Under the pieces are notes generated by a model. It ran no database searches. It saw only the letters and a program-made list of their open reading frames with translations, and was not told where the DNA came from. The position numbers and the translations under genes are program-made. Below, piece after piece: positions 9,246 to 38,419 of a stretch of DNA of 64,000 bases (positions are counted from its first letter, which is position 1; every line of letters begins with the position of its first letter). The DNA is from Candidatus Pelethousia sp. (GTDB lineage: Bacteria; Bacillota; Clostridia; Christensenellales; CAG-138), in NCBI GenBank assembly GCA_034933245.1, contig JAYFNX010000011.1, forward strand, positions 948 to 64,947. The letters run 5' to 3'.

Positions 9246-9246
9246 G

Positions 9247-11382: not shown

Positions 11383-11383
11383 A

Positions 11384-20861: not shown

Positions 20862-22013
20862 ATGATTTACTTTGACAATGGAAGTACCTCCTTCCCCAAA
20901 GCACCGGGCGTGGGAGAAGCGATGGCGGCGCTTATAGCCACGGGAGCATTTAATATCAACCGGGGGGGATATGAGGGCGCTTACCGCGTGGCGGATATGG
21001 TGCTGGATACGCGGGAGCAAATCTGCCGGCTTCTGGATTGGGAAGACCCCAAAAATGTAGCCTTTACCGGCAACGTGACCCAGTCCTTAAACCTGATTTT
21101 GAAAGGATATCTGAAGGCTGGCGACCATGTGATCGTAAGCTCTCTGGAGCATAATGCCGTTATGCGGCCTTTAAATCAATTGGGCAAGTTGGGGGTTACC
21201 TTTGATGCCGCCCAGGCCGATGCGGATGGCCGTTTGGCCATAGAACGAATAGAAGCGCTTATCCGGCCGCAAACCAAGCTGGTTGTGATGACCCATGCCT
21301 CCAACGTATGCGGCACGGTACTGCCTATCGCGGATGCGGCGGCCCTTTGCCGGGCCCGTGGCCTACGCTTTGTGGTGGATGCGGCCCAAACGGCGGGGGT
21401 TCTGCCGCTTTCCATGAAGGAGCTGGGAGCGGACGCAATCGCATTCACAGGCCATAAGGGAATATTGGGGCCCCAGGGGATCGGCGGGATGGTTCTTACG
21501 GATGAATTCGCAGCCCAGATTGAGCCGTTGCTGAGCGGAGGGACGGGCAGCGTATCGGACACAGAGCAAATGCCCGCTTTTTTACCGGACCGATTTGAGA
21601 GCGGCACCATGAATTTGCCCGGCATTGCGGGGCTGCATGCGGCACTGGAATATATTCTGGAAACGGGGACTGACAGAATTAACCAGGTGGAAATGGAGCT
21701 TTGCAGCCGGTTTTTAGCTGGCGTGCGGGCTTTGCCTGGCGTCCGGATGGTTGGCGTAGACGGCATCCAAGGCAGGGTGGCTACCGTGTCCTTAGATTTT
21801 AGTTCCATGGGGCTGGATAACGCCGTCGTCTCCTATCGGCTGGATGATGAGCATGGCATTATGACGCGTTGCGGCATGCATTGCGCGCCGAGGGCCCATA
21901 AGACTTTGGGTACCTTCCCACAGGGTACCGTCCGCTTCGCCTTCGGCCATAAAAACACGCCCGACGAAGTAGATAGTTGCCTGGAAGCATTGAAAGATAT
22001 TTGCAAGAATTGA
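20862..22013 (+). CDS. Class-V aminotransferase: cysteine desulfurase / selenocysteine lyase family
   Basis: 383 aa. N-terminal IYFDNGSTSFPK, PLP-lysine FTGHKGILGP, active-site RCGMHCAP. GGGAGG RBS upstream. Confidence 0.85.
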   Translation: MIYFDNGSTSFPKAPGVGEAMAALIATGAFNINRGGYEGAYRVADMVLDTREQICRLLDWEDPKNVAFTGNVTQSLNLILKGYLKAGDHVIVSSLEHNAVMRPLNQLGKLGVTFDAAQADADGRLAIERIEALIRPQTKLVVMTHASNVCGTVLPIADAAALCRARGLRFVVDAAQTAGVLPLSMKELGADAIAFTGHKGILGPQGIGGMVLTDEFAAQIEPLLSGGTGSVSDTEQMPAFLPDRFESGTMNLPGIAGLHAALEYILETGTDRINQVEMELCSRFLAGVRALPGVRMVGVDGIQGRVATVSLDFSSMGLDNAVVSYRLDDEHGIMTRCGMHCAPRAHKTLGTFPQGTVRFAFGHKNTPDEVDSCLEALKDICKN

Positions 22014-22308: not shown

Positions 22309-23778
22309 TTACATATTTTTTAGAACGCCGGTGCGAGCATTGAACTCGTTGATAAGCGCATCGAGATCCGCGGCTTGGGCATGGATATCCGTCCAGTAGT
22401 GCGCATCATACCACTGCTGATTAATCTCTTCAAAGGTCTTCCCCTGCTGCTCAACCCACGTGTAATACTTCAGGTTATGGATCCGCTTACGTTCCTCGTA
22501 GGAGAGCTCCTTCATGCTATCCGTACGAATGCCATGGAGGTGTTCGGAAAAATCGCGTGCAGCCGTGAGCATATCATAGGGCCCCTGCTGTGCATTGAGC
22601 TCATCAACACGGCTGGTATACATGACGTAGGAATCGGTAGCAACCGTAGCCACAACATCCTTTTCGGTAAGCTCGTAGTATTTGGCAAATTTAATACAGC
22701 ACAGAAGATTGGCAATGCCGGAAATGCCCAGCAGTTCCAGATGGTCGATGGTTTCTTGCTCCACGCCAACCACGTCCTTAAGATATTTGTGACCTTCCGG
22801 TGTATTGAACAGGCGGAGGAGGTTTTGGCTGTCATCATCATCAATATCAATAACCATATCCGTATTCTTTACATTATGTACCCAAGGCACATGCTTATCT
22901 CCAATGCCTTCGATGCGATGCCCGCCAAAGCCGTTTTCCAACAGCGTGGGGCACTGCAAGGCTTCTCCTACCGCCAGCTTGGAATAAGGGTATTGTTCCT
23001 TCAGATAATCGCCGGCGCTCATGGTGCCCGCTGAGCCGGAGGTAAAGCAGGCGCCCGCAAAGCGTTTCTCTCCGCTTAAGGATTCATATGCATCCTGTAT
23101 GGCCTTGCCTGTTACCTGATAGTGCCAAAGCACATTACCCATTTCATCAAATTGATTAAAGATGACAACATCTTTACGGGTTGCCCGCAGCTCGTGGGTT
23201 TTATCGAAAATTTCCTTTACATTGCTCTCACAGCCAGGCGTGGCAATCACTTCGCCGGCGATGGATTTTAGCCAATCGAAGCGCTCCTTGCTCATTTCCG
23301 CGGGCAGGATCGCAACGCTTTCACACCCTAACAGCTTTGAGTTGTAGGCGCCGCCCCGGCAATAATTCCCGGTAGAAGGCCAAACCGCCTTGTTATAGGT
23401 TGGATCAAACTGGCCGGTCACCAGCCGGGGAGCAAGGCAGCCGAACGAAGCGCCCACCTTGTGGCATCCGGTGGGAAACCACTTGCCGCAAAGCATAATG
23501 ATACGGGCCTTGACACCGGTCAGGCTTGAAGGCAGCTCAATGTAGTTCACGTTGCCAAAGGTGCCGCCCTGCATCTTTGGTTCGTTGCGCCAAGTTATGC
23601 GGAAAAGATTCAAGGGGTTGATATCCCAAAGGCCCACCTTTTTAAGGGCTTCTTTAATCTTATCGGGGATAAGATCGGGGTTTCGCATCTGCGCAAAAGT
23701 TGGGATGACGATATGGTTTTCTTTTGCCCGCTCGACCGCACGCGAGAGCTTGTCTTCATGGATGGTTAAGTCGATCAT
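22309..23778 (-). CDS. Large fold-type II PLP-dependent enzyme (cysteine-synthase-like core; lyase/thiolase type)
   Basis: 489 aa with PLP-lysine context FPTGCHKVGASF and a cysteine-synthase-like block WPSTGNYCRGGAYNSKLLGCESVAILPAEMSKER. It has a long C-terminal extension. AGGAAGGA RBS upstream. Confidence 0.75.
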   Translation of the reverse strand: MIDLTIHEDKLSRAVERAKENHIVIPTFAQMRNPDLIPDKIKEALKKVGLWDINPLNLFRITWRNEPKMQGGTFGNVNYIELPSSLTGVKARIIMLCGKWFPTGCHKVGASFGCLAPRLVTGQFDPTYNKAVWPSTGNYCRGGAYNSKLLGCESVAILPAEMSKERFDWLKSIAGEVIATPGCESNVKEIFDKTHELRATRKDVVIFNQFDEMGNVLWHYQVTGKAIQDAYESLSGEKRFAGACFTSGSAGTMSAGDYLKEQYPYSKLAVGEALQCPTLLENGFGGHRIEGIGDKHVPWVHNVKNTDMVIDIDDDDSQNLLRLFNTPEGHKYLKDVVGVEQETIDHLELLGISGIANLLCCIKFAKYYELTEKDVVATVATDSYVMYTSRVDELNAQQGPYDMLTAARDFSEHLHGIRTDSMKELSYEERKRIHNLKYYTWVEQQGKTFEEINQQWYDAHYWTDIHAQAADLDALINEFNARTGVLKNM

Positions 23779-23817
23779 GTTCTGGTTCCTTCCTAATTAT
23801 AGTGTATTGTGATGCTT

Positions 23818-25086
23818 TTATTCCGCGATGCCGCACCAGCTTACGATGGTGCGGGCAAGTATTCTTATGGCATGGAGATAATCGGCAAGGTTTACCCACT
23901 CGTTGTTGGCATGCATCTGCTCCGTCATGCCCGGCCCAAAGATGACGGTAGGGGTGTTGCCATATTTAACAAGGTGGCGGATATCGGCCGCACCCTCCCG
24001 GCCCGAGATTACCGGCACTTTGCCCATAACGGCGGCAAAGCTGCCGCATAGTTCGGTTACGATAGGGCTCTCCACATCAATGGCCGCCGGCTCGGCAAAA
24101 TATCCGTTAAAAATGACCGCAGGCGGGTGATCCTTAAACCAGGGTTCCTGTTCGCTGACGCGTTGGGTAATGAAGCGCACAAATTCCGACTTTACCGCAT
24201 CGGAATCCTCCCCGGGAACGGTGGCCATGGACCCCTTGAGGGTACAGCTGTCCGGGAAGGCGCTGGCATAGGTTCCGCTGCTGAACTGGCCGATCATGCA
24301 AGGGATGGAAGCCAGAATATCAGGATAAAGCGGATGTCGAATTTTGGAAACGCGCTCTTTCTCAAATTCGGATACGGCTTTGGTGACAAGATAGCCAAGG
24401 TCTATGGCGTTTACCCCCTCGTAACGCCGCTGAATGCCGGCCGCTTTGCCTTTTATATTGATGGTAAACCAAATGCGGCCAATGGAACCGGGCTGTACCC
24501 GCATGCTGGAAGTTTCGCAGCAAATGCCGGCATCCGCACGATAGCCTTTTGTTACGCAGGCTAGGGTGCCGTTCCCTGAAAGCTCCTCGTCCATAACATA
24601 CTCGAGGATCACATCTCCCTTGAGCTTGATCCCCGCATCTCGCACCAGCTTCACGGCCATGGTCATGGCGGCAACGCCGGATTTCATATCCGCGGCGCCC
24701 CGGCCGTACATTTTCCCATCCGCAATATCCGCCGACCAGCAGCCATGTTCCCAATTGTCCGAAGATCCCTCTGGAATGACATCCACATGCCCATTGAACA
24801 GCAGGGAGCGCCCGCCGCCTTCTCCCTTAAGGACAGCCACCACATTCGGCCTGCCTTCATAAGAATCCACATCGACTTCTACAAAAGCGGGGTGCTTGCG
24901 AAGCGCATCCAATGCAGGGACAAAGCTGTCCACAGCAAGCCCCAGGCGGGTCAAATGCGCGCCTATGAACTCTTGAATAGGCCCCTCGTTGCCTGTGACG
25001 CTGGGGATACGCAAAATGTCCTGTAGAAAATGAATCGATTCTTTTTCTCTGGAGACTATAAAATCATCCAAATTTCCAATATTCAT
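23818..25086 (-). CDS. M20-family metallohydrolase (ArgE/DapE/YgeY-like)
   Basis: ATG at 25086 with AAGGAG 8 nt upstream. Motifs LLFNGHVDVIP and GRGAADMKSG are the M20 metal and catalytic motifs. Confidence 0.8.
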   Translation of the reverse strand: MNIGNLDDFIVSREKESIHFLQDILRIPSVTGNEGPIQEFIGAHLTRLGLAVDSFVPALDALRKHPAFVEVDVDSYEGRPNVVAVLKGEGGGRSLLFNGHVDVIPEGSSDNWEHGCWSADIADGKMYGRGAADMKSGVAAMTMAVKLVRDAGIKLKGDVILEYVMDEELSGNGTLACVTKGYRADAGICCETSSMRVQPGSIGRIWFTINIKGKAAGIQRRYEGVNAIDLGYLVTKAVSEFEKERVSKIRHPLYPDILASIPCMIGQFSSGTYASAFPDSCTLKGSMATVPGEDSDAVKSEFVRFITQRVSEQEPWFKDHPPAVIFNGYFAEPAAIDVESPIVTELCGSFAAVMGKVPVISGREGAADIRHLVKYGNTPTVIFGPGMTEQMHANNEWVNLADYLHAIRILARTIVSWCGIAE

Positions 25087-25194
25087 TCGAAGCGCTCCTT
25101 GTTTAAAGAAATCAGTGGAGATGACCTGCCTTGTATTTGTAAGTTTATCACACCACATAGAGCGATTCAACTGCCGAAAATGCCAGAAAACGGC

Positions 25195-25216
25195 CAAATA
25201 TTACCCGCAATATTTG
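25195..25216. promoter_or_regulatory. Inverted repeat CAAATATT-acccgc-AATATTTG in the divergent M20/PucR intergenic region
   Basis: 8-bp perfect arms. A third AAATATT copy lies about 40 bp downstream. Confidence 0.35.
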
Positions 25217-25425
25217 TATAAAACAAACAATAAGAAAGCGTGATACTCGGCGAGAAATATTGTAATGCAGGATCGAAAATAGTATCATATATTTACGAAA
25301 AATACCGATAATGTACATAAACCACACGAACAAACGATAATACGCGGCAGATCTAACAAATACCAAAACGCCGAATTTACGTGCATGCCATCGTCTTCAA
25401 AATACAAATTCAAGGGGATACCATT

Positions 25426-27108
25426 ATGGGAATATCGTTACTAGAGGCCATGCGTATACCTCCCTTCTCGGAAGCAAAACTGATAGCGGGTGCAGCCGGG
25501 ATTGGCCGCACGGTGGAATCCGCCAACATTCAAGAAGTGCCGGATGTAGACCGGTGGCTGCATGGGGGAGAAATCGTTTTTACGGCAGGGTATGCCTTTC
25601 AAACGACGGAGAACGCGGTGAAGCTACTGGAGCGGATAAACCACAAGGGCGCCACGGCAATGGCGATAAAACCCAGCCCATACCTTCCCTGCATTCCCAA
25701 GGAGATGATTGCATGCGCAGATAGGCTGGGATTTCCCCTTTTTGAAATATCGGAAGACATGCCCTATATGGATTGCATTCTACCGATATTGGAGCGCATC
25801 ACCCAAAGGCAGCTTACGGTTATGAAGCGGGTAGAAAGCGTGCATGAATCCCTGATGCAGTCGATCTTGCGGGATGAGGGCATGGACGGCATTTGCCGGA
25901 CGTTGAGTGGCGTTACGCAAAGCCCTGTTGCCATTCTTTCGCCCCAGGGGTCCATTATGGCCCGTTGGCATGAAGCCGCCCAGGAAGGCGCTTGTGCGCA
26001 AGACGAGGAGGAAGATGTGCGGCTCCAGGCCTTCCTGCGCAGCAGCAATGTACGCCATATGCGCCGGAACCAGTGCAATGCCGTAAACCTTGGGGATAAA
26101 ACAAGGCGCATATGCGTGCCGATCTTTGCACAGGACGCCCATATAGCTTACCTATTGCTGGATAAATCCATGGATGAAATGCTGGATCTCGATCTGATTG
26201 CATTTGAAAATGCCAGCTCTTTTATCGCCATCGAGATTTTGAAGGAAGAGGCGCTCATACAAAAGGAACAGAGAATTCGGGAGCAGTTCCTGGAGGACCT
26301 GTTTATGAAGCGCTATAACGACAACCGGGTTATGTACCAGCGGGGGTTGTATGTTGGCTTTGATATGAGCCGTCCCCATTGCGTTTTGGTGGTGGCGCCG
26401 GATGCTTTTGAAAGTTATATTTATGGCGAGCTGAAAAGCGCGAATGAAACGGAAGTGCAGAACATCAAGACCCGCATCCATAATTGCGTGCGGGACGGAC
26501 TTGCGGCCTATCCTGGTTCGCTTCTTACCATGACGGACGGGGTAAAAGTCGTAGCCATGGCGGAAATTCGAAATCCCGCGGATTTAAAGACCTTAAAGGT
26601 GGTTTTGCAGGAGTTGACGAAGAAGCTGACGAAGGAGTTTCCGCGCTTATTGTTTTCAGCCGGCGTAGGGCGCGTGAAACGCCGCCTTGAGGAAGTGGGG
26701 GTAAGCCGGGACGAGGCGATGCTTGCGCTGCGGGCAAGCCGCAAGACCAAGTTGCATACTGAGGACGAACGGATTATGTTCTTTGAGGATTTGGGGTGCC
26801 TGTGCTTTCTGTGTGAATTGGATGGTTCCACCGCTATGCGCAATTATTACGAGGAGCATATGCGCGCGCTGATAGAGTATGATGCGGAAAACAAGTGCGA
26901 TCTAATCGCAACGCTGGAAGCATACCTCGCGAGCAATCAAAACCTTCGGTTAACAGCAGAACGCCTTTTTGTGCATAAGAATTCCGTTATTTATAGGCTC
27001 CATAAAATCGAGGGGCTTATCGGGCAACGCCTCTCAGATGCAAAGACGGGATTTGATATGCAGCTTTGCTTATATTTACGCAGCATTTTTTCCGAACCGC
27101 AAAGGTGA
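25426..27108 (+). CDS. PucR-family transcriptional regulator
   Basis: ATG at 25426 with AAGGGGA upstream. It has a PucR-type N-terminal domain and a C-terminal HTH (LRLTAERLFVHKNSVIYRLHKIE). Confidence 0.85.
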   Translation: MGISLLEAMRIPPFSEAKLIAGAAGIGRTVESANIQEVPDVDRWLHGGEIVFTAGYAFQTTENAVKLLERINHKGATAMAIKPSPYLPCIPKEMIACADRLGFPLFEISEDMPYMDCILPILERITQRQLTVMKRVESVHESLMQSILRDEGMDGICRTLSGVTQSPVAILSPQGSIMARWHEAAQEGACAQDEEEDVRLQAFLRSSNVRHMRRNQCNAVNLGDKTRRICVPIFAQDAHIAYLLLDKSMDEMLDLDLIAFENASSFIAIEILKEEALIQKEQRIREQFLEDLFMKRYNDNRVMYQRGLYVGFDMSRPHCVLVVAPDAFESYIYGELKSANETEVQNIKTRIHNCVRDGLAAYPGSLLTMTDGVKVVAMAEIRNPADLKTLKVVLQELTKKLTKEFPRLLFSAGVGRVKRRLEEVGVSRDEAMLALRASRKTKLHTEDERIMFFEDLGCLCFLCELDGSTAMRNYYEEHMRALIEYDAENKCDLIATLEAYLASNQNLRLTAERLFVHKNSVIYRLHKIEGLIGQRLSDAKTGFDMQLCLYLRSIFSEPQR

Positions 27109-27387
27109 TACGCTCTAAAAACAGAATCGGTTTGCGCCATTTTAAGCCGTCGGGAGGGTTTCAATATGGAACGATAGCGCTTTTTTTCTTTTTGGGGAAC
27201 TTGATGGATTTTCCTATGAAAATACGCCCAACAGGTTAGCCCATTGGCAATCCAGCGCGCTGCTTACCTTGATTATACCGGGAGGATCAGAACGCATGGC
27301 CACAGCCTAAACTTTGGTCGCCTTATGAAGGGAAAATGAAAATGTACTGCGCCTAATATATGGACCACAATCACAAACATTTTTTAA

Positions 27388-27400
27388 AAACGTTGGTATG
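27388..27400 (+). promoter_or_regulatory. PucR-box-like motif AAACGTTGGTATG
   Basis: It resembles the B. subtilis PucR box WWWCNTTGGTTAA as I recall it (10 of 13 positions). It lies about 150 bp upstream of the DPD-like gene. Confidence 0.25.
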
Positions 27401-27548
27401 GTGTCACAATGACATGAAATCCGCGGATGTGATACGATAGCACCGTAAAAATGATTTAGAAAACAACCATATAAGCGTCTGTACAGAATCGAAAAAGCTT
27501 ATCAAAAAAACCCATCATAAGCACTTAGCATAGGAAAGGTGGAGCACA

Positions 27549-28700
27549 ATGGCAAATTTGGAAGTCTCTTATTGCGGCGTAAAGTTTCGCAATCCTTTGG
27601 TTCTTGCATCCGCAACCCCAGGCTGGGACGGAGAAGGTATGCGCCTGGCAGGAGAAGCGGGAATTGGCGGCGTTATCCCCAAGACGATTGGACCGGAACA
27701 GGACTGGGCTGCGCATCCGCGCAATGGCCGCATCTATTTGCACCGCTATAACGGCAAACCGATTGGACAAGTCAATCTTGAGCTGTTCACAACAATGAGC
27801 CGTGATGCATGGGTAAGGGAACAACTTGCTATCGCCAAAGAAGGCGGCGCTACGATGCAAGTTAGCATATTGGCTATGCCGGAGCCTGAAGAAACCGCCA
27901 AGCTGGTGGAGGAAATTCAGGCGACAGGGCTGGTGGATCTCTTTGAACTTAACGTTTCCTGTCCAATGCCCGCTTCCACGGTAGGCATGCACATTGGGAA
28001 AAGCCCCGAGCGCACCTTTAACCAAGTGAAAATTGCGAAGGCGGCATCCAAAATACCGTTTACGGTAAAAATGACGCCCAATGTAACGGATCTTATCGAT
28101 GTGAGCATTGCCGCAAAAGAAGCCGGCGCGGATGGCATTACCATCAGCAATTCCATCCGCTCTTTTGCAGGGGTGGATATTGAAAGCGGCAAGCCCTATC
28201 TGTGCGGATACGGCGGCTATACGGGCCCCGCAATTCATCCCATCATTATGCGCCATGTATCTGAAGTGGCACGCCATGTGGATATCCCTATCTCGGCTGT
28301 GGGGGGCGTAAACAGCTATAAAGAGGTAATCGAATTCATCATGCTGGGTGCAACGACCGTTCAGATCTGCACCGCCGTTATGTGGAACGGTTATGAACGC
28401 ATCACCCAGATTGTTAACGATTTGAACAAGTGGATGGATGCCAAAGGATACAAATCCTTTGAAGAGATTCGCGGGATTGCGCTTAAGGATATCACCACGG
28501 TGGAGAAGCTGGCGGAGTTGCCGGCCAAGTTCGCGGATGTGGATCGGGAGGCTTGCACCAATTGCGGCCTATGCCAACGCCTGTGTATGTATCGCGCCAT
28601 TCGCGAAAAGGACGGCAAGCGGTTTGTGGAAACCGGCAAGTGCGATGGTTGCGGCGTATGCGCCCAGTGGTGTCCTACCAAAGCAATTACGCTCAAATAA
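27549..28700 (+). CDS. Dihydroorotate/dihydropyrimidine dehydrogenase-like FMN enzyme with C-terminal 2x[4Fe-4S] domain (PreA-like)
   Basis: 383 aa with the class-1 DHOD/DPD barrel (active-site NVSCP, GGVNS) and CTNCGLCQRLC...CDGCGVCAQWCP. GAAAGGTGGAG RBS upstream. Confidence 0.85.
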   Translation: MANLEVSYCGVKFRNPLVLASATPGWDGEGMRLAGEAGIGGVIPKTIGPEQDWAAHPRNGRIYLHRYNGKPIGQVNLELFTTMSRDAWVREQLAIAKEGGATMQVSILAMPEPEETAKLVEEIQATGLVDLFELNVSCPMPASTVGMHIGKSPERTFNQVKIAKAASKIPFTVKMTPNVTDLIDVSIAAKEAGADGITISNSIRSFAGVDIESGKPYLCGYGGYTGPAIHPIIMRHVSEVARHVDIPISAVGGVNSYKEVIEFIMLGATTVQICTAVMWNGYERITQIVNDLNKWMDAKGYKSFEEIRGIALKDITTVEKLAELPAKFADVDREACTNCGLCQRLCMYRAIREKDGKRFVETGKCDGCGVCAQWCPTKAITLK

Positions 28701-28786
28701 TGGAATGGGACGAATTTCATTCCGCCCGGCTTCACGGGGGGAACTGCAATTAAATTACAATAAAACGGGAGGAAAAAGGAGGAAGT

Positions 28787-29878
28787 ATGAAAAAGTATAT
28801 CGCATTATTGCTGACATTCCTAGTTACCGTTAGCATGGTAGCAGGATGCGCAGCCCCGTCCCAACCGGCAGCGCAAGCCCCTGCGGCCCAGGAACCCGCC
28901 GCAACGGAGGCCCAAGCTGCGGAGCCCGCCGCTGCAAGTGAACCCGCTTATGTGTTAAAGATCGGCCACGACCACACTACCACCTCTCCGATTCAAGCTT
29001 CAGCCGAAGAGTTCAAGCGCCTTGTGGAGGAAAATAGCAATGGCCAGATCAGCGTGGAAATTTATCCCGCCCAGCAGCTCGGCAGTTCCCGCGAGATGAT
29101 CGAAAGCCTGCAGATCGGCACGCTGGAAGCGGTGCTGCTCCCCACGGCCAAATTCGGCGGATTCGACCAGCGCCTCAACCTTGCCGATATGCCCTTTATC
29201 GCTGACTCGGAGAAGGACTTCTTAACGATCTTCAACGGCGAGATTGGCCAGGAAGCCATGAGCGGCTTGCCTTCCATCGGCATTACGGGCATTGCGTACT
29301 ACCCCGAAGGATTCAAAGCCATAACCAACAACGTGCACCCCATTGTGACGCCCGCGGATCTGAAGGGCCTCAAGATCAGAACCATGGAAGCGCCTATCAT
29401 AATGTCCATGTTCTCGGCATGGGGCGCAAACCCGGTTCCCGTGGATTTCACCGAAGTTTATAATTCCCTCCAGCAGAACGTTGTGGACGGCCAGGAGAAC
29501 CCGTTCCTGTCCATTCATGATATGAAGTTTTATGAAGTCCAAAAATACATGACCATTTCCAACCATGCGTATTTGTCCTATTTCCTGGCGGCGAGTACCT
29601 CGTGGTTTGATGCGCTCCCCGCCGATCTTCAGGAAGTTGTTAGACAGGCCGGGATAGATGCATCTGCATTTTGCCTTGTTAAGATGAACGAGGCCAATGA
29701 CGGCTATCTCAAGACCATCAAGGACTACGGCGTGGAAGTTTATGAGCTCAGCCAGGAAGAGCGGCAGACATTTAAGGATGCATGTTCCTCTGTCTATGAC
29801 GACTATCGCGATGTTATTGGCGGCGATCTGCTGGACCGTGCGGTTGCACAGGCTGCGGAACTGTCTGCGGCCCAATAA
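28787..29878 (+). CDS. TRAP transporter substrate-binding lipoprotein (DctP family)
   Basis: Lipobox VAGC, an Ala/Gln/Glu/Pro linker, then a DctP-type domain. GGAGGAAG RBS upstream. Confidence 0.85.
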   Translation: MKKYIALLLTFLVTVSMVAGCAAPSQPAAQAPAAQEPAATEAQAAEPAAASEPAYVLKIGHDHTTTSPIQASAEEFKRLVEENSNGQISVEIYPAQQLGSSREMIESLQIGTLEAVLLPTAKFGGFDQRLNLADMPFIADSEKDFLTIFNGEIGQEAMSGLPSIGITGIAYYPEGFKAITNNVHPIVTPADLKGLKIRTMEAPIIMSMFSAWGANPVPVDFTEVYNSLQQNVVDGQENPFLSIHDMKFYEVQKYMTISNHAYLSYFLAASTSWFDALPADLQEVVRQAGIDASAFCLVKMNEANDGYLKTIKDYGVEVYELSQEERQTFKDACSSVYDDYRDVIGGDLLDRAVAQAAELSAAQ

Positions 29879-29913
29879 TAACACCTCGGCTCACGTTTTA
29901 ATGGAAAGGAAAA

Positions 29914-29941
29914 TCGTCTGCCGCGTTTTCGCGGCAGACGA
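29914..29941 (+). terminator. Stable hairpin after the TRAP SBP gene (no clear U-tract)
   Basis: tcgtctgccgcg / tttt / cgcggcagacga. Confidence 0.45.
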
Positions 29942-29967
29942 AAACCGAGTTAGGAGGTGCTTCTTGT

Positions 29968-30495
29968 ATGCTTGAACGGATGGATACCTACCTTTCGCGC
30001 TTTGAAAACGCGATAAACGGCGGCTTGATGCTTGCAGGCGTCGTCGTGTTATTTATAAACGTCATGATGCGTTACCTTTTTCATGCCGCATCTACTTGGG
30101 TGGAAGAAGCCTTGCGCTATGCGATTATCTGGGTGACTTTTTTTGGAGGCAGCCAGTGCGCAAAGAACGGCACACACGTTGGCATTGATCTTCTTACCCA
30201 ATCTCTTCCGGAAACCGGGAAACGGATACTTTCCGCAACGGGCCAGTTTATAGCAGGCGTATTAAACGCATTCTGTACCTATGCGGGGATACAGATGACA
30301 AAGCTCGTGCTGGACACGGCGCAGAAAAGTCCTGCAATTCTCATGCCGATGTGGATTGTGTATATAGCTATCCCCCTCGGATGTGGTCTGATGACGATCA
30401 GGTTCTTTGTTGCAGGCCTAAACATACTCAGGCATAATGGCCCGGGCTCCCTGATTGCCGACGAAGAAGGCCATGTCGATATGTCACGGCTGTAG
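29968..30495 (+). CDS. TRAP transporter small permease (DctQ family)
   Basis: 175 aa with four predicted TM helices, positioned between the DctP and DctM genes. Confidence 0.8.
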   Translation: MLERMDTYLSRFENAINGGLMLAGVVVLFINVMMRYLFHAASTWVEEALRYAIIWVTFFGGSQCAKNGTHVGIDLLTQSLPETGKRILSATGQFIAGVLNAFCTYAGIQMTKLVLDTAQKSPAILMPMWIVYIAIPLGCGLMTIRFFVAGLNILRHNGPGSLIADEEGHVDMSRL

Positions 30496-30504
30496 GAGGC
30501 CCAC

Positions 30505-31788
30505 ATGATAGCAGCATTATTTATTTCCTTATTTGTTCTTTTGATTCTTGGCGCGCCGGTATTCGTAGCGCTGAGCCTGTCCTCGCTGATTGCCATCGTA
30601 GGATTTTCCAACTATCCGCTGATGATCGTGGTGCAGCGCATGGTGGGCGGCGTGGATAAGTTCTCCCTCATGGCGATCCCTTTCTTTATTTTAGGCGCGA
30701 ATGTTATGAAGACAGGCGGGATCGCAAAACGAATTTTAAACTGGGCCCAGACCATGGTGGGCGGCAACACGGGCGGCATGGCCATGACCACCGAGGTCGC
30801 CTGTATGTTCTTTGGGGCCGTGTCGGGTTCTTCTCCTGCAACGGTGATCGCCATCGGCGGCCTTATGTATCCCAAGATGATAGAAAAAAAATACCCAAGA
30901 GGATTTACCACAGGTTTAATTACCTCCAGCGGCTCCGTGGCGTTGCTTATCCCGCCCAGCATTTCCGCTATCGTATACGGATCCGTCACCGGCGCGTCTG
31001 TTGGCGCCCTGTTTATGGCCGGTCTTGGCGCGGGCATTCTTTACGGCATCTGCTTTATAGCCTATTGCTTCTGGTATGCGAAAAAACACAAAATTCCCAA
31101 GGATCCCAAATGCGACGCGAAAGCAAAGTGGAAAGCCACCCTGGACGCCGCATGGGCGCTGGGCATTCCCATTATCATCATGGGCGGAATTTATGCCGGC
31201 GTTTTCACGCCTACCGAAGCATCGGGCGTGGCAACCGTTTATGCGATTGTGGTTAGCCTTTTTGTTTATAGAGATATGAAGCTTAAGGAGCTTTGGGAGT
31301 GCTGTATAGCTTCTGCAGGTTCGACGGCGCAAGTTATGATCCTTCTGGCCGTCGCATCTATCTTCAGCTGGGTCCTCACGGTGGGGCAGATACCCCAACA
31401 GCTTTCCCAGATGATCGTAAACGCGAATCTTTCGGCCGTGGGATTCCTCCTGGTGACAAACCTGCTGCTCATTGTGGAGGGGATGTTTATTGATGGCTCT
31501 TCCGCCATCATCATCACCGCGCCGCTGCTTTACAGCGCAGCCGTGGCACTGGGAATTAATCCGATTCACCTGGGCGTTATCATGGTTGCCAACGCCGCAA
31601 TCGGTATGTTCACACCGCCCTTTGGCCTCAATTTGTTCGTGGCGCAACCTGTTACGGGCAATAACATGAAAACCATTATGAAAGGCGTCATGCCCTTTGT
31701 GCTGATAAGCCTCATCGCCCTGGCGCTGATTACCTATCTGCCGGAGGTAAGCCTATTCCTGCCGAGGCTGGTTTACGGAACCGTTTAA
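30505..31788 (+). CDS. TRAP transporter large permease (DctM family)
   Basis: 427 aa, polytopic, with a typical DctM N-terminus. Confidence 0.9.
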   Translation: MIAALFISLFVLLILGAPVFVALSLSSLIAIVGFSNYPLMIVVQRMVGGVDKFSLMAIPFFILGANVMKTGGIAKRILNWAQTMVGGNTGGMAMTTEVACMFFGAVSGSSPATVIAIGGLMYPKMIEKKYPRGFTTGLITSSGSVALLIPPSISAIVYGSVTGASVGALFMAGLGAGILYGICFIAYCFWYAKKHKIPKDPKCDAKAKWKATLDAAWALGIPIIIMGGIYAGVFTPTEASGVATVYAIVVSLFVYRDMKLKELWECCIASAGSTAQVMILLAVASIFSWVLTVGQIPQQLSQMIVNANLSAVGFLLVTNLLLIVEGMFIDGSSAIIITAPLLYSAAVALGINPIHLGVIMVANAAIGMFTPPFGLNLFVAQPVTGNNMKTIMKGVMPFVLISLIALALITYLPEVSLFLPRLVYGTV

Positions 31789-31798
31789 GGCAAGCAGC

Positions 31799-31823
31799 GG
31801 GCCGTAGCAATACGGCCCTTTTG
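31799..31823 (+). terminator. Terminator/attenuator hairpin between the TRAP genes and the Mo-hydroxylase genes
   Basis: gggccgta / gcaa / tacggccc followed by ttttg. Confidence 0.6.
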
Positions 31824-31869
31824 CCAGAAAATGAATTGATTTATATAAATTGCAGAGGAGCGTGTCAAA

Positions 31870-32724
31870 TTGCGAGTCAATACCTATTATAAACCCGCTA
31901 CCTTGCGGGAAGCATTGGTTTGTATGCGGTCCGGTGGTATCGTAAAAGCGCTTGCCGGCGGAACGGATTTGATTATCGAAATGAACGGAGGAAAGATTGC
32001 GCTGGATGCGCTGGTGGATCTTTCCGCTATATCCGAACTTAAGAACATAGAAGCCAGAGAAGACGGGCTGCATGTGGGCAGCATGGCCACCTTTTCGCAA
32101 ATCGCCAGCAGCGCGCTTGTGCAAAAAATATGCCCTATGCTCGCCGAAGCGGCTGCGATGGTGGGCTCGACCCAGGTGCGGAACAGTGGCACCATTGGAG
32201 GAAATCTGGCAAATGCGGCGACGGCGGCGGATACGGTTCCTGCGTTAATGGCTGCCGACGCCGTTGCGGTCATCAAGAACGCGGAAGGGATGCGCGTTCT
32301 GCCGGTAACCAATATTCCGACCGGGCTGAATACCACATGCCTCGCGGCGGACGAGCTGATTTTTGAGTTAATCATACCCCGGCATACGGGCTGCTTCATG
32401 GCTTTTGAAAAGATTGGACGGCGCAAAGCGCTTGCCATTTCCCGCATTAATATGGGCCTGTTGCTTGAAATGACCGGCAGCACCATTGCGCGCGCTGCGG
32501 TGGCTTACGGAGCGGTGGGAAAAACAGCATACCGCGTAACGGAGCTGGAGACGTTCCTGGAAGGGAAGCAACTCGACGAGGCCTTGATCAAACAGGCGGG
32601 AGATCTGGCGGAAAAAATCGTTACGGAAAAGCTTGCCGGAAGAAAGACCACGCCATATAAACGAAAGATTGCGGCGGCGGTGCTACGGCGTGCGCTTACC
32701 AGGGCGAATGGAGGTGCTGTGTAA
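31870..32724 (+). CDS. Molybdenum hydroxylase FAD-binding subunit (CoxM/XdhB/NdhF type)
   Basis: 284 aa, TTG start with GAGGAG 9 nt upstream. FAD-binding motif LAGGTDLI and TIGGNLAN. Confidence 0.85.
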   Translation: MRVNTYYKPATLREALVCMRSGGIVKALAGGTDLIIEMNGGKIALDALVDLSAISELKNIEAREDGLHVGSMATFSQIASSALVQKICPMLAEAAAMVGSTQVRNSGTIGGNLANAATAADTVPALMAADAVAVIKNAEGMRVLPVTNIPTGLNTTCLAADELIFELIIPRHTGCFMAFEKIGRRKALAISRINMGLLLEMTGSTIARAAVAYGAVGKTAYRVTELETFLEGKQLDEALIKQAGDLAEKIVTEKLAGRKTTPYKRKIAAAVLRRALTRANGGAV

Positions 32725-33189
32725 ATGGTACGCAAGATGACATTCGAAATAAACGGGCAGAACTATACTGTGGAAGTTGACCCTTCCATGCGCCTGTTGG
32801 ATCTCATCCGGGATGTGATTGGCCTTACGGGAACAAAAGAGGGCTGCGCCGAAGGGGAATGCGGCGCCTGCACCGTGATTCTGGACGGGGAAGCCGTTAC
32901 GAGTTGCCTTGTGCTGGCAGGCCAAGCCGAAGGCCATTCGATCATCACCATCGAGGGCGTTTCTCAAAACGGCGAGCTTACCAGGCTCCAGCAGGCTTTT
33001 GTGGATTGCGGCGCGATCCAGTGCGGCTTTTGCACGCCGGGCATGATTCTCTCGGCAAAGGCGCTGCTGGATAAAAACCCTCATCCCACGGACGATGAAA
33101 TCCGCACGGCAATTTCGGGCAACCTGTGCCGCTGCACAGGGTACGTAAAAATTGTGGACGCCGTTAAAAAGGCGGCCCAGGAGGAGTGA
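32725..33189 (+). CDS. Molybdenum hydroxylase 2x[2Fe-2S] subunit (CoxS/NdhS type)
   Basis: 154 aa. CAEGECGAC and QCGFCTPG...CRCTGY cluster motifs. Confidence 0.9.
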   Translation: MVRKMTFEINGQNYTVEVDPSMRLLDLIRDVIGLTGTKEGCAEGECGACTVILDGEAVTSCLVLAGQAEGHSIITIEGVSQNGELTRLQQAFVDCGAIQCGFCTPGMILSAKALLDKNPHPTDDEIRTAISGNLCRCTGYVKIVDAVKKAAQEE

Positions 33190-33192
33190 GCC

Positions 33193-34488
33193 ATGATACC
33201 GACCTCTGAATTCAAAGTAGTAGGAAAGCGGGAAGTCAGGAAGGATTCGCTGCCAAAAGCAACCGGGGCGGCCCGTTATGCGGCGGATATTAAAATGCCC
33301 GGCATGCTGTGCGGGAAGGCGCTTCGGAGCGAATATCCGCATGCGAAGATCCTATCTATCGATACCGATGCGGCCAAGGCGATGCCCGGCGTGCATGCGG
33401 TGCTTACAGCCAAAGATATCCCTGGTATCAATAAGTTTGGCCTGGCAATCGCGGACCAGGAGGTATTGGCCAGCAAAAAGGTGCGCATGATGGGCGACGC
33501 CGTGGCGCTCGTTGCCGCGGAAACGCTGGAGCAGTGCGAGGCCGCACTTCGCCAAATAAAGGTGGCGTATCAGGAATTGCCGGGGGTATTTTCCATTGAG
33601 GACGGCATCAAGGAAGGCGCACCCCTTGTGCATGAAGATGTGCCGGGCAACCTTCTTCAGCATACCATGGTGCGCAAGGGCGATGTTAGCACCGCGTGGG
33701 CGGACTGTGCCTATATTGTGGAAAACGACTATACCACCCAGCGCGTGGAACACGCCTATATCGAACCGGAGGTAGCGGTGGCATACATCGATACCATGGG
33801 CGTTATGAACGTGCTCAATTCAACGCAATATACGTTCCGGGACAGAAGGCAAATTGCCCCGGTCATCGATATGCCGCATAACATGGTGCGGGTGCAACAG
33901 CAGACGACAGGCGGCGGATTCGGCGGAAAAGATGACATCACCTGTGAAATTCAGGCGGCTTTGTTGGCGCTGAAGACAGGGAGACCCGTGAAGGTGGTAT
34001 GGACCCGCAGCGAATCCATGGCCTGCTCCACGAAGCGGCACCCCATGAAAATCCACGTTAAGACCGGATGCGATAAAAACGGAAAATTGCTGGCCATGGA
34101 AGGAACCGTCTATAGCGATAAGGGTGCGTATTGCTCCATCGGCCACTTTATTACCAAAAAAGCCGGGCTGCACCTTGCGGGCCCCTATTATATTCCAAAC
34201 ATTTGTGTGGATACGTATAGCATCTATACCAATAACACAATCTCCGGACCGTATCGTGGGTTCGGAATTCTACAGTCTGCCTTTGCGCACGAATCCCAGA
34301 TGGATCAGCTTGCCGACCTTGTCGGTATGGATCCGCTGGAATTCAGACTTCTCAATTGCCTGAAACATGGGTTATCCACCGCGACAGGACAGGTGTTCAC
34401 CCAGGGCGTGGGGTTTGAGGATACGCTACTGGCCATGAAAGAATATATGGGTGAGACAGACCTGTATGGCGAGGAGGGAGATCAATGA
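33193..34488 (+). CDS. Molybdopterin-binding subunit, N-terminal chain (NdhL-like)
   Basis: 431 aa with an a/b-hammerhead domain plus the first Mo-pterin domain (GGGFGGK motif). It ends at a TGA overlapping the next start (ATGA). Confidence 0.85.
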   Translation: MIPTSEFKVVGKREVRKDSLPKATGAARYAADIKMPGMLCGKALRSEYPHAKILSIDTDAAKAMPGVHAVLTAKDIPGINKFGLAIADQEVLASKKVRMMGDAVALVAAETLEQCEAALRQIKVAYQELPGVFSIEDGIKEGAPLVHEDVPGNLLQHTMVRKGDVSTAWADCAYIVENDYTTQRVEHAYIEPEVAVAYIDTMGVMNVLNSTQYTFRDRRQIAPVIDMPHNMVRVQQQTTGGGFGGKDDITCEIQAALLALKTGRPVKVVWTRSESMACSTKRHPMKIHVKTGCDKNGKLLAMEGTVYSDKGAYCSIGHFITKKAGLHLAGPYYIPNICVDTYSIYTNNTISGPYRGFGILQSAFAHESQMDQLADLVGMDPLEFRLLNCLKHGLSTATGQVFTQGVGFEDTLLAMKEYMGETDLYGEEGDQ

Positions 34489-35498
34489 AAAAACGCGGAC
34501 GCGGAATAGGATGCAATCTTTATGGTGTGGGCTATGGCTTCAGCCGGCCGGACCATTCCGCCGCTACGGTGGAGGTCGCGGACGACGGCACTGCCACCGT
34601 ACTTTCCGGGGCATGCGATATTGGGCAGGGTTCGGATACGGCGCTTTGCCAGATCGCTGCGGAGGAACTGGGTATTCCCTATACGAATGTGCGCATTGTT
34701 AGCGCGGACACGGCCTTTACGCCGGATGCGCTTGCCAGCACCGCAAGCCGCGAAACCTTTGTTTCGGGCCGCGCCGTGCAGCTTGCCGCCAAGGATGCCA
34801 AAACGTATCTTCTCAAATATGCAGCGGAGCTTCTCAACTGTTCCCAGGAGGAGCTGGATGTAAGAGCCAACGCAGTGGTTTCGTCCAGGAATCCGGAAAT
34901 TACCATGCCGTTCCCCGAGCTTTGCGCGCTGGCGCATAATAACGGGAGACGGTTCATTGGGTTTGCTTGGTATGATAACACCACGAAGGATGTGGACCAT
35001 GATACCAACCAGGGGGATGCCTATGCCACTTACATTTATGCGACCCAGGTGGCGGATGTGGAAGTGGATACCGAGACAGGCGATGTAACGGTTTTAAGGG
35101 TAGGCGCAGCCCACGATGTTGGCCGCGCAATCAACCCCATGATGGTGGAGCAACAGGTGGAGGGAGCCGTTCTACAGGGCATGGGGTATGGAATTATGGA
35201 GGAAGTTATCCTGGATAAAGGGCACACGCTGACGCCCAACTTCTCCAAATTCCTCATACCAACCGCAAAGGATGCGCCGAGGATAAAAACCTACATTGTG
35301 GAGTCCGATGTGGGACGCGGGCCTTTTGGGGCAAAGGGCGTAGGGGAAGGGGCCATCATACCGACCGCCGCGGCGGTGGTAAATGCCGTAAACAATGCCA
35401 TAGGCGTGCGCATTCGGGAGTTGCCGATCACACCGGAAAAGATATTGGCTGCCCTTGAAGAAAAAGAAAAAGCGACGCAGCAAGAAGGTAAAAAGTAA
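34485..35498 (+). CDS. Molybdopterin-binding subunit, C-terminal chain (NdhM-like)
   Basis: 337 aa containing the second half of the aldehyde oxidase/xanthine dehydrogenase Mo domain (DIGQGSDT, GVGEGA). It is in a different frame from the L chain. Confidence 0.85.
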   Translation: MKKRGRGIGCNLYGVGYGFSRPDHSAATVEVADDGTATVLSGACDIGQGSDTALCQIAAEELGIPYTNVRIVSADTAFTPDALASTASRETFVSGRAVQLAAKDAKTYLLKYAAELLNCSQEELDVRANAVVSSRNPEITMPFPELCALAHNNGRRFIGFAWYDNTTKDVDHDTNQGDAYATYIYATQVADVEVDTETGDVTVLRVGAAHDVGRAINPMMVEQQVEGAVLQGMGYGIMEEVILDKGHTLTPNFSKFLIPTAKDAPRIKTYIVESDVGRGPFGAKGVGEGAIIPTAAAVVNAVNNAIGVRIRELPITPEKILAALEEKEKATQQEGKK

Positions 35499-35897: not shown

Positions 35898-36135
35898 AAT
35901 CTATTGTGATATTCCGCCCGCTGGGCCAAACGCTCCTTTGCATACGGAACGGGAGGTGCGCTATAAATCCTATTCGCCCAAGCCACATCTGAAAAAAGAG
36001 AACGATTCGGAAGAGATGCGGATGCAGGGGCAAACTTCCGTAACGCCGTCATAATTCCGAAATTTCGGCGCAGACTATGCCCGAGTAACAAGGATGGAAA
36101 ATTCATAAAATTCAACCACGATGCAAAGGAGTGAA

Positions 36136-36594
36136 ATGCATATGCCCAAGCCCCAGACGGCGCAGCAAAAGCAATATCAACAGCGGGTAAACGAGAAGAT
36201 GCCTCGAAGCAATACCTTTTCCCAATGCGTTCGCGCTTTCATATCCGGCGGGATCATCTGCTGCATCGGCCAGGCGGTGCGGAATTACGGCCTGGGGCCC
36301 CTGGGACTTTCCGAGGACAACGCGGCTGCTTTTACGGCCATGGTTATGGTATTCTTAGGCGCTACGCTCACAGGCATTGGAATTTACGATAAAATAGGCG
36401 CATGGTCCGGTGCGGGCAGCATCGTACCCATCACAGGCTTTGCAAACTCCATCGTCTCCCCGGCAATGGAGTTTAAAAGGGAAGGGTTTGTTATGGGCGT
36501 GGGGGCAAAGCTTTTTTCCATTGCCGGCCCTGTTCTGGTGTATGGTATTAGCGCCTCCGTTCTCGTTGGGCTGATCACCTGCCTAATCAAATAG
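36136..36594 (+). CDS. spoVAC: Stage V sporulation protein AC
   Basis: Conserved SpoVAC core (FISGGIICCIGQ..., PITGFANS). AAAGGAG RBS before the ATG at 36136. Confidence 0.85.
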   Translation: MHMPKPQTAQQKQYQQRVNEKMPRSNTFSQCVRAFISGGIICCIGQAVRNYGLGPLGLSEDNAAAFTAMVMVFLGATLTGIGIYDKIGAWSGAGSIVPITGFANSIVSPAMEFKREGFVMGVGAKLFSIAGPVLVYGISASVLVGLITCLIK

Positions 36595-36611
36595 GAAAGG
36601 GGAGTAGAACA

Positions 36612-37643: not shown

Positions 37644-37658
37644 AAGGAGAGAAACGAT

Positions 37659-38015: not shown

Positions 38016-38045
38016 AGCGGCATCCATTTCCCGGATAGGCCGATG

Positions 38046-38093
38046 TAAAAAACAGCAAGCACAACGGCAACAATCCGTTGCGCTTGCTGTTTA
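38046..38093 (+). terminator. Rho-independent terminator of the spoVA operon
   Basis: acagcaagcacaacgg / caacaat / ccgttgcgcttgctgt flanked by A- and T-runs. Confidence 0.8.
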
Positions 38094-38119
38094 GGAAGAC
38101 GAAGGAACCTTAATGAAAA

Positions 38120-38296: not shown

Positions 38297-38419
38297 GATT
38301 ACGAGTACCTTTCAAATTGTTGAATTGTGCAAACCATAGAATATATCGGAATTATTTACCACTTTTAGTTTACCATATTGAATAAGAAATATAAATGGCG
38401 TGATCGCTTTTCGCCAAAC

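Follow-up and report, generated by a model that had tools for sequence, protein, structure and literature searches.

A 64,000-nucleotide stretch of the genome of Candidatus Pelethousia sp. (GenBank assembly GCA_034933245.1, contig JAYFNX010000011.1, positions 948 to 64,947), referred to below as the window, carries at 22309-35498 a cluster of eleven open reading frames (ORFs) in which a PucR-family regulator is combined with a molybdenum (Mo) hydroxylase, a reductase of the dihydropyrimidine dehydrogenase (DPD) type, a tripartite ATP-independent periplasmic (TRAP) transporter, an amidohydrolase and a pyridoxal phosphate (PLP) enzyme. The limits of the cluster match the ORF map exactly, 22309 being the stop of the PLP-enzyme gene on the minus strand and 35498 that of the last hydroxylase gene. 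Domains were assigned with Pfam and NCBIfam, which covered most window ORFs of at least 140 aa, and the cluster reads as follows.

22309..23778, minus strand: PLP489, a 489-aa fold-type II PLP enzyme (Pfam PALP, 37.7 bits)
23818..25197, minus strand: M20 (ArgE/DapE-type) metallo-amidohydrolase, 459-aa ORF (Peptidase_M20 and M20_dimer)
25381..27108, plus strand: PucR-family regulator, 575 aa, divergent from the M20 gene (PucR, GGDEF_2, HTH_30)
27549..28700, plus strand: stand-alone DPD/PreA-type reductase (DHO_dh, 130.9 bits, and Fer4 domains)
28787..29878, plus strand: DctP, TRAP solute-binding lipoprotein (DctP, 292 bits)
29968-30495, plus strand: DctQ, TRAP membrane subunit (DctQ, 113.7 bits)
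30505-31788, plus strand: DctM, TRAP membrane subunit (DctM, 398 bits)
31870-32724, plus strand: NdhF, FAD subunit of the hydroxylase (FAD_binding_5 and CO_deh_flav_C)
32725-33189, plus strand: NdhS, 2x[2Fe-2S] subunit (Fer2 and Fer2_2)
33193-34488, plus strand: NdhL, large part of the split molybdopterin subunit (best PDB match 3HRD_A)
34485-35498, plus strand: NdhM, second part of the split molybdopterin subunit (best PDB match 3HRD_B)

The regulator sits between two transcription units, with M20 and PLP489 leftward and the genes from the reductase to NdhM rightward. The M20 ORF lies 39 nt upstream of the PLP489 ORF on the minus strand, and on the other side a 440-nt spacer separates the PucR gene from eight tightly packed plus-strand ORFs (27549-35498). 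An earlier note, made from the letters of the window alone, had described this layout, and all eleven of its genes were recovered in place with the domains it gave them; these include the fold-type II PLP enzyme and the DPD/DHODH-like FMN/2x[4Fe-4S] reductase, in which a DHO_dh domain is followed by both four-cysteine motifs.

The question of whether these genes belong together was addressed with a survey of other genomes. Fourteen reductase orthologues (68-81% identical) were aligned and used as a pattern with which one genome per species was scanned, giving 57 loci (numbered here with the prefix L) with up to 10 kb on each side, which were analysed by clustering of all their ORFs and by tblastn searches with the proteins of the window. 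The usable orthologous set, defined by a reductase of at least 58% identity and at least 9 kb of sequence, comprises 33 loci. PucR is present in 25 of these and nearly always lies directly upstream of the reductase gene; the four-subunit Mo hydroxylase, scored by its Mo subunits, is present in 20, M20 in 18 (58-72% identity), the TRAP genes in 10-11, and a PLP489 gene within 10 kb of the reductase in seven. The carriers are Christensenellaceae, Oscillospiraceae, Lachnospiraceae, Peptococcaceae/Desulfotomaculia, Moorella-type bacteria, an Eggerthellaceae metagenome-assembled genome (MAG), a deltaproteobacterial MAG and other MAGs, and a 'Clostridia bacterium' MAG encodes a protein 100% identical to the window reductase. 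The recurrence of PucR, hydroxylase and M20 around reductase orthologues makes the arrangement more than chance, and since M20 occurs in several positions and orientations relative to the reductase, selection is favoured over inherited synteny as its cause. Neighbourhood conservation, proposed earlier as a check, thus holds for a core of PucR, DPD-like reductase, Mo hydroxylase and M20, while the TRAP transporter and PLP489 are optional.

Some loci lack the hydroxylase altogether and have what appears to be a minimal module. In Lachnospiraceae (L006, L007, L010) a leftward M20 gene and a rightward PucR gene are followed by the reductase, an Nramp-like transporter and DpaL, and in the Eggerthellaceae MAG (L019) the order is PucR-M20-reductase-DctPQM-DpaL, with SecA and PrfB as boundaries. 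Large proteins flanking the L019 module were considered as alternative Mo enzymes and rejected, as they are SecA, a sensor protein and PrfB. The reductases (77-79%) and M20 proteins (68-69%) of the minimal modules match the window proteins as closely as those of hydroxylase-bearing loci do, and the reductase substrate of the minimal modules is probably also the hydroxylase product. The terminal gene encodes a genuine 2,3-diaminopropionate ammonia-lyase (503 bits with NF006058 for the L007 protein, cut-off 276), a family not present in the window. The minimal modules are self-contained and have no hydroxylase, and three enzymes therefore suffice to lead from the reductase substrate to a central metabolite. 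In L006 a pyruvate,phosphate dikinase gene (7824-10322) lies about 700 bp, or one short ORF, downstream of the diaminopropionate ammonia-lyase gene.

Other loci have additional neighbours. L013, L015, L022 and L040 have UbiD-family decarboxylase genes beside the cluster, accompanied by a small neighbouring gene, perhaps UbiX, and in L013-L015 there are adenine-deaminase-like amidohydrolase genes next to it, Oscillospiraceae being among these UbiD and adenine-deaminase loci. More distant reductase relatives (42-55% identity; L043, L054, L057, L058) adjoin a dihydropyrimidinase-like amidohydrolase, an enolase and a glycerate-kinase-like (DUF4147/MOFRL) protein, and two Thermococci MAGs among them also have an unsplit Mo hydroxylase; these clusters probably serve a different pathway.

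The hydrolase position is informative in a further way. In eight of the 33 loci a DUF6282 protein of 294 aa is encoded after the reductase, and it never occurs together with M20: no locus has both, 18 have M20 only, eight DUF6282 only and seven neither (Fisher p = 5e-4, a test that overstates independence here, the surveyed loci being phylogenetically related). Such alternation is expected if both proteins fill one pathway step. An invariant pattern of the kind seen in metal hydrolases, DxHxH...KCHHE...H...H...D, runs through the DUF6282 proteins, and a profile search against PDB sequences gave chance matches only, with no solved relative detected. In six of the eight DUF6282 loci the reductase is preceded by a protein of the Asp/Glu-racemase/Amdase family, which has both catalytic-type cysteines (GCTSAG and SCTNF) and matches the EutA model with 83 bits. 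The M20 protein of the window exceeds the cut-off of TIGR01910 (264.9 against 217.6 bits) and reaches no equivalog cut-off, its scores with the YgeY models being 115 and 74 bits where the cut-offs are 321; translation probably begins downstream of the listed TTG. The hydrolase role first suggested for M20 would be filled by M20 in 18 of 33 loci and by DUF6282 in eight others.

The hydroxylase, which the earlier note had called a selenium-type Mo hydroxylase, belongs to the xanthine dehydrogenase family and has four subunits (NdhF 284, NdhS 154, NdhL 431 and NdhM 337 aa). Its gene order is F-S-L-M, as is that of the nicotinate dehydrogenase (NDH) of Eubacterium barkeri (PMC10331938), and its Mo subunit is split where that of NDH is, giving two pieces of about 425 and 330 aa. 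For both pieces the closest solved structures are also those of nicotinate dehydrogenase, namely the large subunit, 3HRD chain A, for NdhL (383 bits, 44% identity, residues 4-415) and the medium subunit, 3HRD chain B, for NdhM (300 bits, 47% identity, residues 1-330). The catalytic glutamate equivalent to bovine Glu1261 is Glu288 of NdhM, within a GAKGVGE motif, and is invariant in NDH and in the clade of hydroxylases linked to the reductase. The substrate pocket is where the two enzymes part. With NdhL positions mapped through an alignment to bovine xanthine oxidase, the position of bovine Glu802 is occupied by Asp247 in the window protein and by Leu243 in NDH, and that of Arg880 by Lys323 and Arg319 respectively; the Asp/Lys pair is found in all 25 reductase-linked hydroxylases, down to 48% identity. 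The N-terminal active-site strand of NdhM (residues 10-12) reads C-N-L in the window and S-M-W in NDH, as placed by what we take to be the corresponding bovine motif, F1009-T1010-V1011. A rough neighbour-joining tree puts NDH as sister to the whole linked clade. As judged by these residues, the window hydroxylase is NDH-like in architecture yet fails the pocket test for a nicotinate dehydrogenase. It is not a generic member of its family either, given the NDH gene order and split, the sister clade of its own and the Asp/Lys pocket; it is probably selenium-dependent.

The reductase scores 290 bits with the PreA model NF006183, below the equivalog cut-off of 335, and its closest matches among solved structures are pig DPD, in its FMN domain (residues 532-848), and class 1B dihydroorotate dehydrogenase (DHODH). 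Two CxxCxxCxxxC motifs follow the DHO_dh domain (Cys336/339/342/346 and Cys365/368/371/375) and are invariant in the 14 orthologues, as are the catalytic Cys138 (NVSCP) and Asn76, Asn135 and Asn201. In DPD the cysteine of the NxSCP motif is the catalytic residue, and three asparagines hold the ureide ring in the established DPD and DHODH structures. The loop that follows Asn76 (NLELF) is presumably DPD-like, and unlike the loop of DHODH that meets the orotate carboxylate. No PreT/PydA1 partner gene adjoins the reductase, and no partner gene recurs in the 57 loci. A GltD-like protein (Fer4_20 and Pyr_redox_2, 9997-11382) is encoded in the window beside a PyrK-like protein (DHODB_Fe-S_bind), the two genes occupying 9997-12226 on the minus strand in an NfnAB-like arrangement; it was considered as a PreT partner and rejected, as it is half of an NfnAB-type pair and lies 16 kb from the reductase. 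Since this is the only GltD/PreT-like protein of the window and belongs to that pair, the reductase lacks a PreT partner. A ferredoxin-dependent DPD with no NAD(P)H module, PydAc of Clostridium chromiireducens, has been characterised (PMC7332683), which makes a stand-alone, low-potential reductase plausible here.

All three TRAP proteins score above their family cut-offs, and DctP has a lipobox (VAGC) followed by an Ala/Pro-rich linker. Its best solved relatives are 7BBR, which binds 2-keto-3-deoxygluconate, 4P47, the ligand of which is not known, and 4NN3, which binds orotate. Arg198 and Asn238, the carboxylate-binding pair, correspond to Arg173 and Asn213 of 4P47 and are kept in cluster-linked orthologues. 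The acidic residue usual at position 76 (in 4P47 numbering) is replaced by Ser in the window protein and by Ser, Ala or Gly in linked orthologues, and Arg at position 152 gives way to Lys (His in one); these two deviations have been reported only for the orotate binder 4NN3 (PMC11668362). This pattern is modest evidence for a predicted ligand that is a flat heteroaromatic carboxylate with no neighbouring hydroxyl. The proposal that a TRAP system takes up a heterocyclic carboxylate is thus consistent with the retained Arg and Asn and with the residues at positions 76 and 152; other loci have Nramp-like or Liv-type ABC transporters in place of TRAP. A scan for terminator-like structures found one further feature within these genes:

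29914..29941, no strand assigned: palindromic hairpin in the dctP-dctQ spacer, with a perfect 12-bp GC-rich stem

This hairpin may perhaps stabilise the mRNA of the binding protein.

The regulator has its PucR (102 bits), GGDEF_2 (49 bits) and HTH_30 (63.5 bits) domains, all above gathering scores, and a candidate for its site of action lies in the spacer before the rightward genes:

27393..27414, plus strand: promoter/operator-like element TTGGTAT-N6-ACAATGACA, 135 nt upstream of the reductase gene

The element is followed by an extended -10-like TGTGATACGAT, and the composite recurs upstream of the reductase in seven other loci (L005, L009, L010, L012, L013, L014, L015) and upstream of PucR in L014, so that it is conserved in several genera; elsewhere in the 1.9 Mb searched on both strands, matches are weaker and mostly inside genes. 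It is likely to be a promoter -35 region with an activator site, and its TTGGT core resembles what we take to be the PucR box of Bacillus subtilis. No counterpart of the element was found in the M20-PucR spacer. An exact palindrome upstream of the reductase, TGTCA-N3-TGACA, was rejected as an operator as it is not conserved beyond three loci, and generic promoter and terminator counts were at chance level.

The NCBIfam matches of PLP489 to CysK and cystathionine beta-synthase (CBS) are far below the cut-offs (80 against 351). An AlphaFold2 model with a predicted local distance difference test (pLDDT) score of 94 finds its best Foldseek matches in CysK, beta-cyanoalanine synthase and also CBS, at a template modelling (TM) score of about 0.8 and 21-26% identity, with about 170 extra residues that have no counterpart in the CysK-type fold. 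Lys106, in an FPTGxHKVG motif, is nearly invariant, and the family is compact, with 329 representatives at E < 1e-30 and about 80% identity across many Clostridia. The modelled core is of the beta-substituted-alanine synthase/lyase (CysK/CBS) type, and the enzyme has been recruited to the cluster repeatedly, though not obligatorily; in distant lineages (L025, L029, L051, L059) it has been set beside M20 or the reductase. Two other genomes encode, directly beside a PLP489 homologue, a Bmp/PnrA-type ABC transporter and a ThrC-like PLP protein that begins with a Zn-ribbon; a ThrC-like gene also adjoins PLP489 in two cluster loci (L001, L002, L038 and L047 being the ThrC-like cases together), and a ThrC-like/Bmp block is present in the window as well, at 244-6774 on the plus strand. 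This hints at a functional pairing of ThrC-like protein and PLP489 that is independent of the hydroxylase.

From the gene content, the co-conservation, the intact domains and catalytic motifs, the alternation of hydrolases and of PLP lyases and the pocket signature of the hydroxylase, we infer the uptake of a heterocyclic carboxylate, an order of steps, a routing of electrons, a dependence on selenium and a substrate. On balance we lean slightly towards reading the locus as a PucR-controlled catabolic module for a small N-heterocyclic carboxylate, in its most specific version one of the imidazole-4-carboxylate type. The TRAP system would import the acid, and the NDH-type four-subunit hydroxylase would place an oxo group on a ring carbon adjoining nitrogen. 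The stand-alone PreA-type reductase would then saturate the ring C=C bond activated by hydroxylation, with electrons from ferredoxin or from the hydroxylase, and in the latter case the two steps together would be redox-neutral. M20 would cleave the ring amide or urea bond, or an N-carbamoyl or N-acyl product, a role taken elsewhere by DUF6282, usually with the racemase-like protein. Finally PLP489, acting as a C-beta-N lyase, or DpaL in other loci, would remove the beta-nitrogen to leave pyruvate and ammonia.

It is DpaL that suggests the nature of the substrate. This enzyme needs an N-C(COOH)-C-N skeleton, and therefore an imidazole-type substrate is indicated rather than a pyridine; a ring with the skeleton N-C(COOH)=C-N, as in imidazole-4-carboxylate, could be converted to 2-oxo-imidazoline-4-carboxylate, then to 2-oxoimidazolidine-4-carboxylate, then to 2,3-diaminopropionate and CO2, and at last to pyruvate and two NH3. 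Oxidation at a carbon between two nitrogens is the reaction of xanthine dehydrogenase at C8. When an N,N'-disubstituted cyclic urea is hydrolysed once, the product is a carbamic acid, which loses CO2, so that a single hydrolase would suffice. The overall balance, C4H4N2O2 + 3 H2O -> pyruvate + CO2 + 2 NH3, is redox-neutral and atom-balanced. A similar ending is known from the 2,8-dioxopurine pathway, in which the M20 enzyme YgeY gives diaminopropionate and YgeX converts this to pyruvate (PMC12507026). The proposal in full, namely an undescribed anaerobic fermentation that forms pyruvate, CO2 and ammonia from imidazole-4-carboxylate or a closely related azole or ureide carboxylate, in which the hydroxylase would represent a new specificity class of split, selenium-type Mo enzymes, M20 or DUF6282 would be a cyclic ureidase and DpaL or the CysK-like lyase would act last, is put forward tentatively, as a possibility well short of likely.

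Several observations weigh against this reading, in addition to the relatedness of the surveyed loci. DpaL is found in none of the 20 hydroxylase-bearing loci and all six DpaL loci lack the hydroxylase, and because the two never co-occur, the clue that DpaL gives comes from hydroxylase-free modules only. PLP489 homologues of about 80% identity also occur in unrelated neighbourhoods (with ThrC-like protein and Bmp ABC transporter, or with DUF1538), and the role of PLP489 may be broader than the cluster. We know of no M20 enzyme that acts as a ring opener, and the closest solved hydroxylase, NDH, acts on a pyridine, nicotinate. The UbiD and adenine-deaminase-like neighbours of some loci find no explanation in the proposed pathway, and no paper was found that deals with imidazole-4-carboxylate or its 2-oxo form, be it their breakdown or their natural pools.

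The kinship of the hydroxylase with NDH raises the possibility of a variant nicotinate or picolinate fermentation, with hydroxylation at C6, the DPD-like enzyme in place of 6-hydroxynicotinate reductase, M20 or DUF6282 in place of enamidase, and the later steps encoded elsewhere in the genome. Both Mo subunits are nearest to those of E. barkeri NDH, with the same split and gene order; reduction of the C4=C5 bond of 6-oxo-1,6-dihydropyridine-3-carboxylate resembles the reduction of uracil; and nicotinate is common and TRAP systems import acids. We nevertheless think it unlikely. The differences in the pocket (Asp/Lys against Leu/Arg, and C-N-L against S-M-W) run through the 25 linked hydroxylases, and NDH falls outside their clade. 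Neither the annotated window ORFs nor the recurrent families of the 57 loci include a 6-hydroxynicotinate reductase, an enamidase or the enzymes leading from 2-formylglutarate to propionate and pyruvate, and the dehydrogenase, Fe-S dehydratase, B12 mutase, isomerase and lyase of such a route are likewise missing from both. The hydroxylase-free modules end in DpaL, which has no role in pyridine breakdown, and no E. barkeri locus is among the 57 matches of the pattern scan.

A branch of purine or pyrimidine catabolism would seem natural for a locus under a PucR-family regulator with a reductase nearest to DPD and PreA. Here the hydroxylase would be of the purine-hydroxylase type, the reductase would act on uracil, orotate or an oxopurine, M20 would be a ureidopropionase, a ureidosuccinase or an analogue of YgeY, and the ring would be opened by housekeeping or distant amidohydrolases. 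The adenine-deaminase-like genes beside the cluster in L013-L015 would fit, as would the resemblance of DctP to the orotate binder, and M20 and DpaL parallel YgeY and YgeX; the selenium-dependent purine hydroxylase of Gottschalkia purinilytica also has four subunits, which provides a lead for this explanation rather than a test of it. But genes for SsnA, HyuA, YgeW, YqeA, YgfK and dihydropyrimidinase are all absent from the window and from the close orthologous loci, dihydropyrimidinase-like genes being found only beside the distant (42-55% identical) reductase relatives, and the minimal modules are bounded by unrelated genes. No cyclic amidohydrolase was found among the annotated window ORFs (most of those of at least 140 aa), as had been noted before. 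The routes from uracil and orotate lead to beta-alanine or aspartate and need neither DpaL nor a CysK-type enzyme, and the reductase loop at the place of the orotate carboxylate is, by comparison with the DHODH and DPD motifs, presumably of the DPD type. Orotate itself was rejected as the substrate, as it leaves DpaL, PLP489 and the hydroxylase unexplained, and we consider the explanation as a whole improbable.

That the two transcription units are unrelated neighbours, with M20 and PLP489 serving amino-acid or peptide metabolism and the rightward operon alone forming a heterocycle pathway, is very improbable, for although PLP489 accompanies the reductase in only seven of 33 loci and has homologues (about 80%) in quite different neighbourhoods, and although no shared operator was found in the M20-PucR spacer, M20 orthologues (58-72%) accompany the reductase in 18 loci in varied positions and orientations and alternate with DUF6282 as for one shared step, and PLP489 has been recruited beside M20 or the reductase in L025, L029, L051 and L059; chance juxtaposition is thus contradicted for M20, and for PLP489 it is only weakly tenable.

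With the heterocyclic-carboxylate module as the preferred reading, the surroundings of the cluster remain to be described. Genes for selenium metabolism and Mo-cofactor maturation lie directly upstream of it:

15152-16696, minus strand: XdhC-like maturation factor (NCBIfam)
about 17858-18904, minus strand: SelD, with an in-frame TGA (NCBIfam and translation)
19493-20557, minus strand: YedE selenium transporter (NCBIfam)
20862-22013, plus strand: SclA-like desulfurase (NCBIfam)

The selD frame has a TGA at the canonical selenocysteine/cysteine (Sec/Cys) position (translation TSCGG*AAKIGPG), and SelD is thus itself a selenoprotein, the listed 319-aa ORF being N-terminally truncated. A tRNA scan of the window gave no match, and no tRNA-Sec gene lies there; an Rfam scan of the whole window found no RNA element. 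The XdhC-family factor has an extra C-terminal segment (residues about 351-450) that matches dUTPase models. Between its gene and selD lies a 257-aa ORF (16947-17720, minus strand) with no Pfam or NCBIfam match, the product of which is rich in Pro, Ala and Ser, has a low-complexity look and a C-terminal hydrophobic segment, and is apparently membrane-anchored; it was considered as YqeC and rejected, and the YqeB and YqeC models found no match among the scanned window ORFs. The earlier note had placed the cluster within a selenium island, and the genes do adjoin it here, but the adjacency is confined to this genome: in none of the 57 other loci does a SelD, YedE, SclA-like or XdhC-like gene lie within 10 kb of the cluster. 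The earlier interpretation as a whole is partly supported, as a heterocyclic-acid module with a conserved core, and needs correction as regards the hydroxylase, which is not generic, M20, which alternates with DUF6282, the TRAP system and PLP489, which are optional, and the selenium genes. On the other side, spoVAC, spoVAD and spoVAE lie directly downstream of the cluster and are followed by a VanW gene; three VanW-domain proteins are encoded in the window, and the spoVA and VanW genes together fall at 36121-40169, 56530-57867 and 61542-63434. The link to dipicolinate at which the spoVA genes might hint was rejected as a coincidence of the genomic backbone, given that spoVA and VanW genes also flank a PLP489 homologue in L003, where the other cluster genes are missing.

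Only for a few substrates, namely nicotinate, purines and pyrimidines, has the anaerobic degradation of N-heterocycles been worked out in detail, and the module described here is spread over many anaerobic Bacillota, including MAGs of the gut and digester kind (Lachnospiraceae, Oscillospiraceae and Christensenellaceae). If the proposal is true, it would add a new, probably selenium-dependent, substrate class to the NDH-type Mo hydroxylases, give first functions to DUF6282 and to the very conserved 490-aa PLP family, and provide a second route to 2,3-diaminopropionate and pyruvate, independent of the uric-acid pathway found recently. With only five to seven genes, the minimal modules lend themselves to a direct in vitro test of the hypothesis.

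No description of this cluster was found in the literature searched, and the combination of parts, the hydroxylase clade, the alternative of DUF6282 and racemase and the 490-aa PLP family are not described in the searchable literature; the logic of hydroxylation, reduction, hydrolysis and deamination is known from the fermentations of nicotinate, purines and pyrimidines. The gene sets of both the E. barkeri nicotinate and the Escherichia coli ygeW-ygfT clusters are incomplete here, in agreement with the earlier note that the combination matches neither. With the nicotinate cluster the locus shares hydroxylation beside the ring nitrogen, reduction and hydrolysis, and differs in its PreA/DPD-type reductase, in M20 or DUF6282 instead of enamidase, and in its PLP lyases. 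The 2,8-dioxopurine pathway (E. coli ygeW-ygfT and Clostridium sporogenes) likewise has a selenium-linked, NDH-related Mo enzyme, a flavin/Fe-S ring reductase, an M20 hydrolase and a fold-type II PLP lyase. The window locus, in contrast, is without YgfK, SsnA, HyuA, YgeW and YqeA, and no carbamoyltransferase or carbamate kinase was found; its Mo enzyme, in which the Mo subunit is split, contains an FAD subunit, and 2,8-dioxopurine dehydrogenase (XdhD/DOPDH) is without FAD; its PLP enzyme is CysK-like rather than DpaL, its M20 protein is far below the YgeY cut-offs, and a carboxylate transporter is present. Compared with the PydAc pyrimidine pathway, the reductase also lacks the N-terminal ferredoxin domain, has neither a dihydropyrimidinase nor a PydC-type partner, and is linked to a Mo hydroxylase and a carboxylate transporter; what the two share is an FMN/[4Fe-4S] enzyme of the DPD family with no NAD(P)H/FAD module, the use of low-potential electrons, and the catalytic Cys and Asn triad. 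The ectoine and hydroxyectoine clusters (EutA, EutB, with TRAP or ABC uptake) have no Mo hydroxylase or DPD-type reductase and use hydrolases of other families (M24/M14), yet they too bring together a carboxylated N-heterocycle, a TRAP transporter, a protein of the Asp/Glu-racemase family and a fold-type II PLP enzyme.

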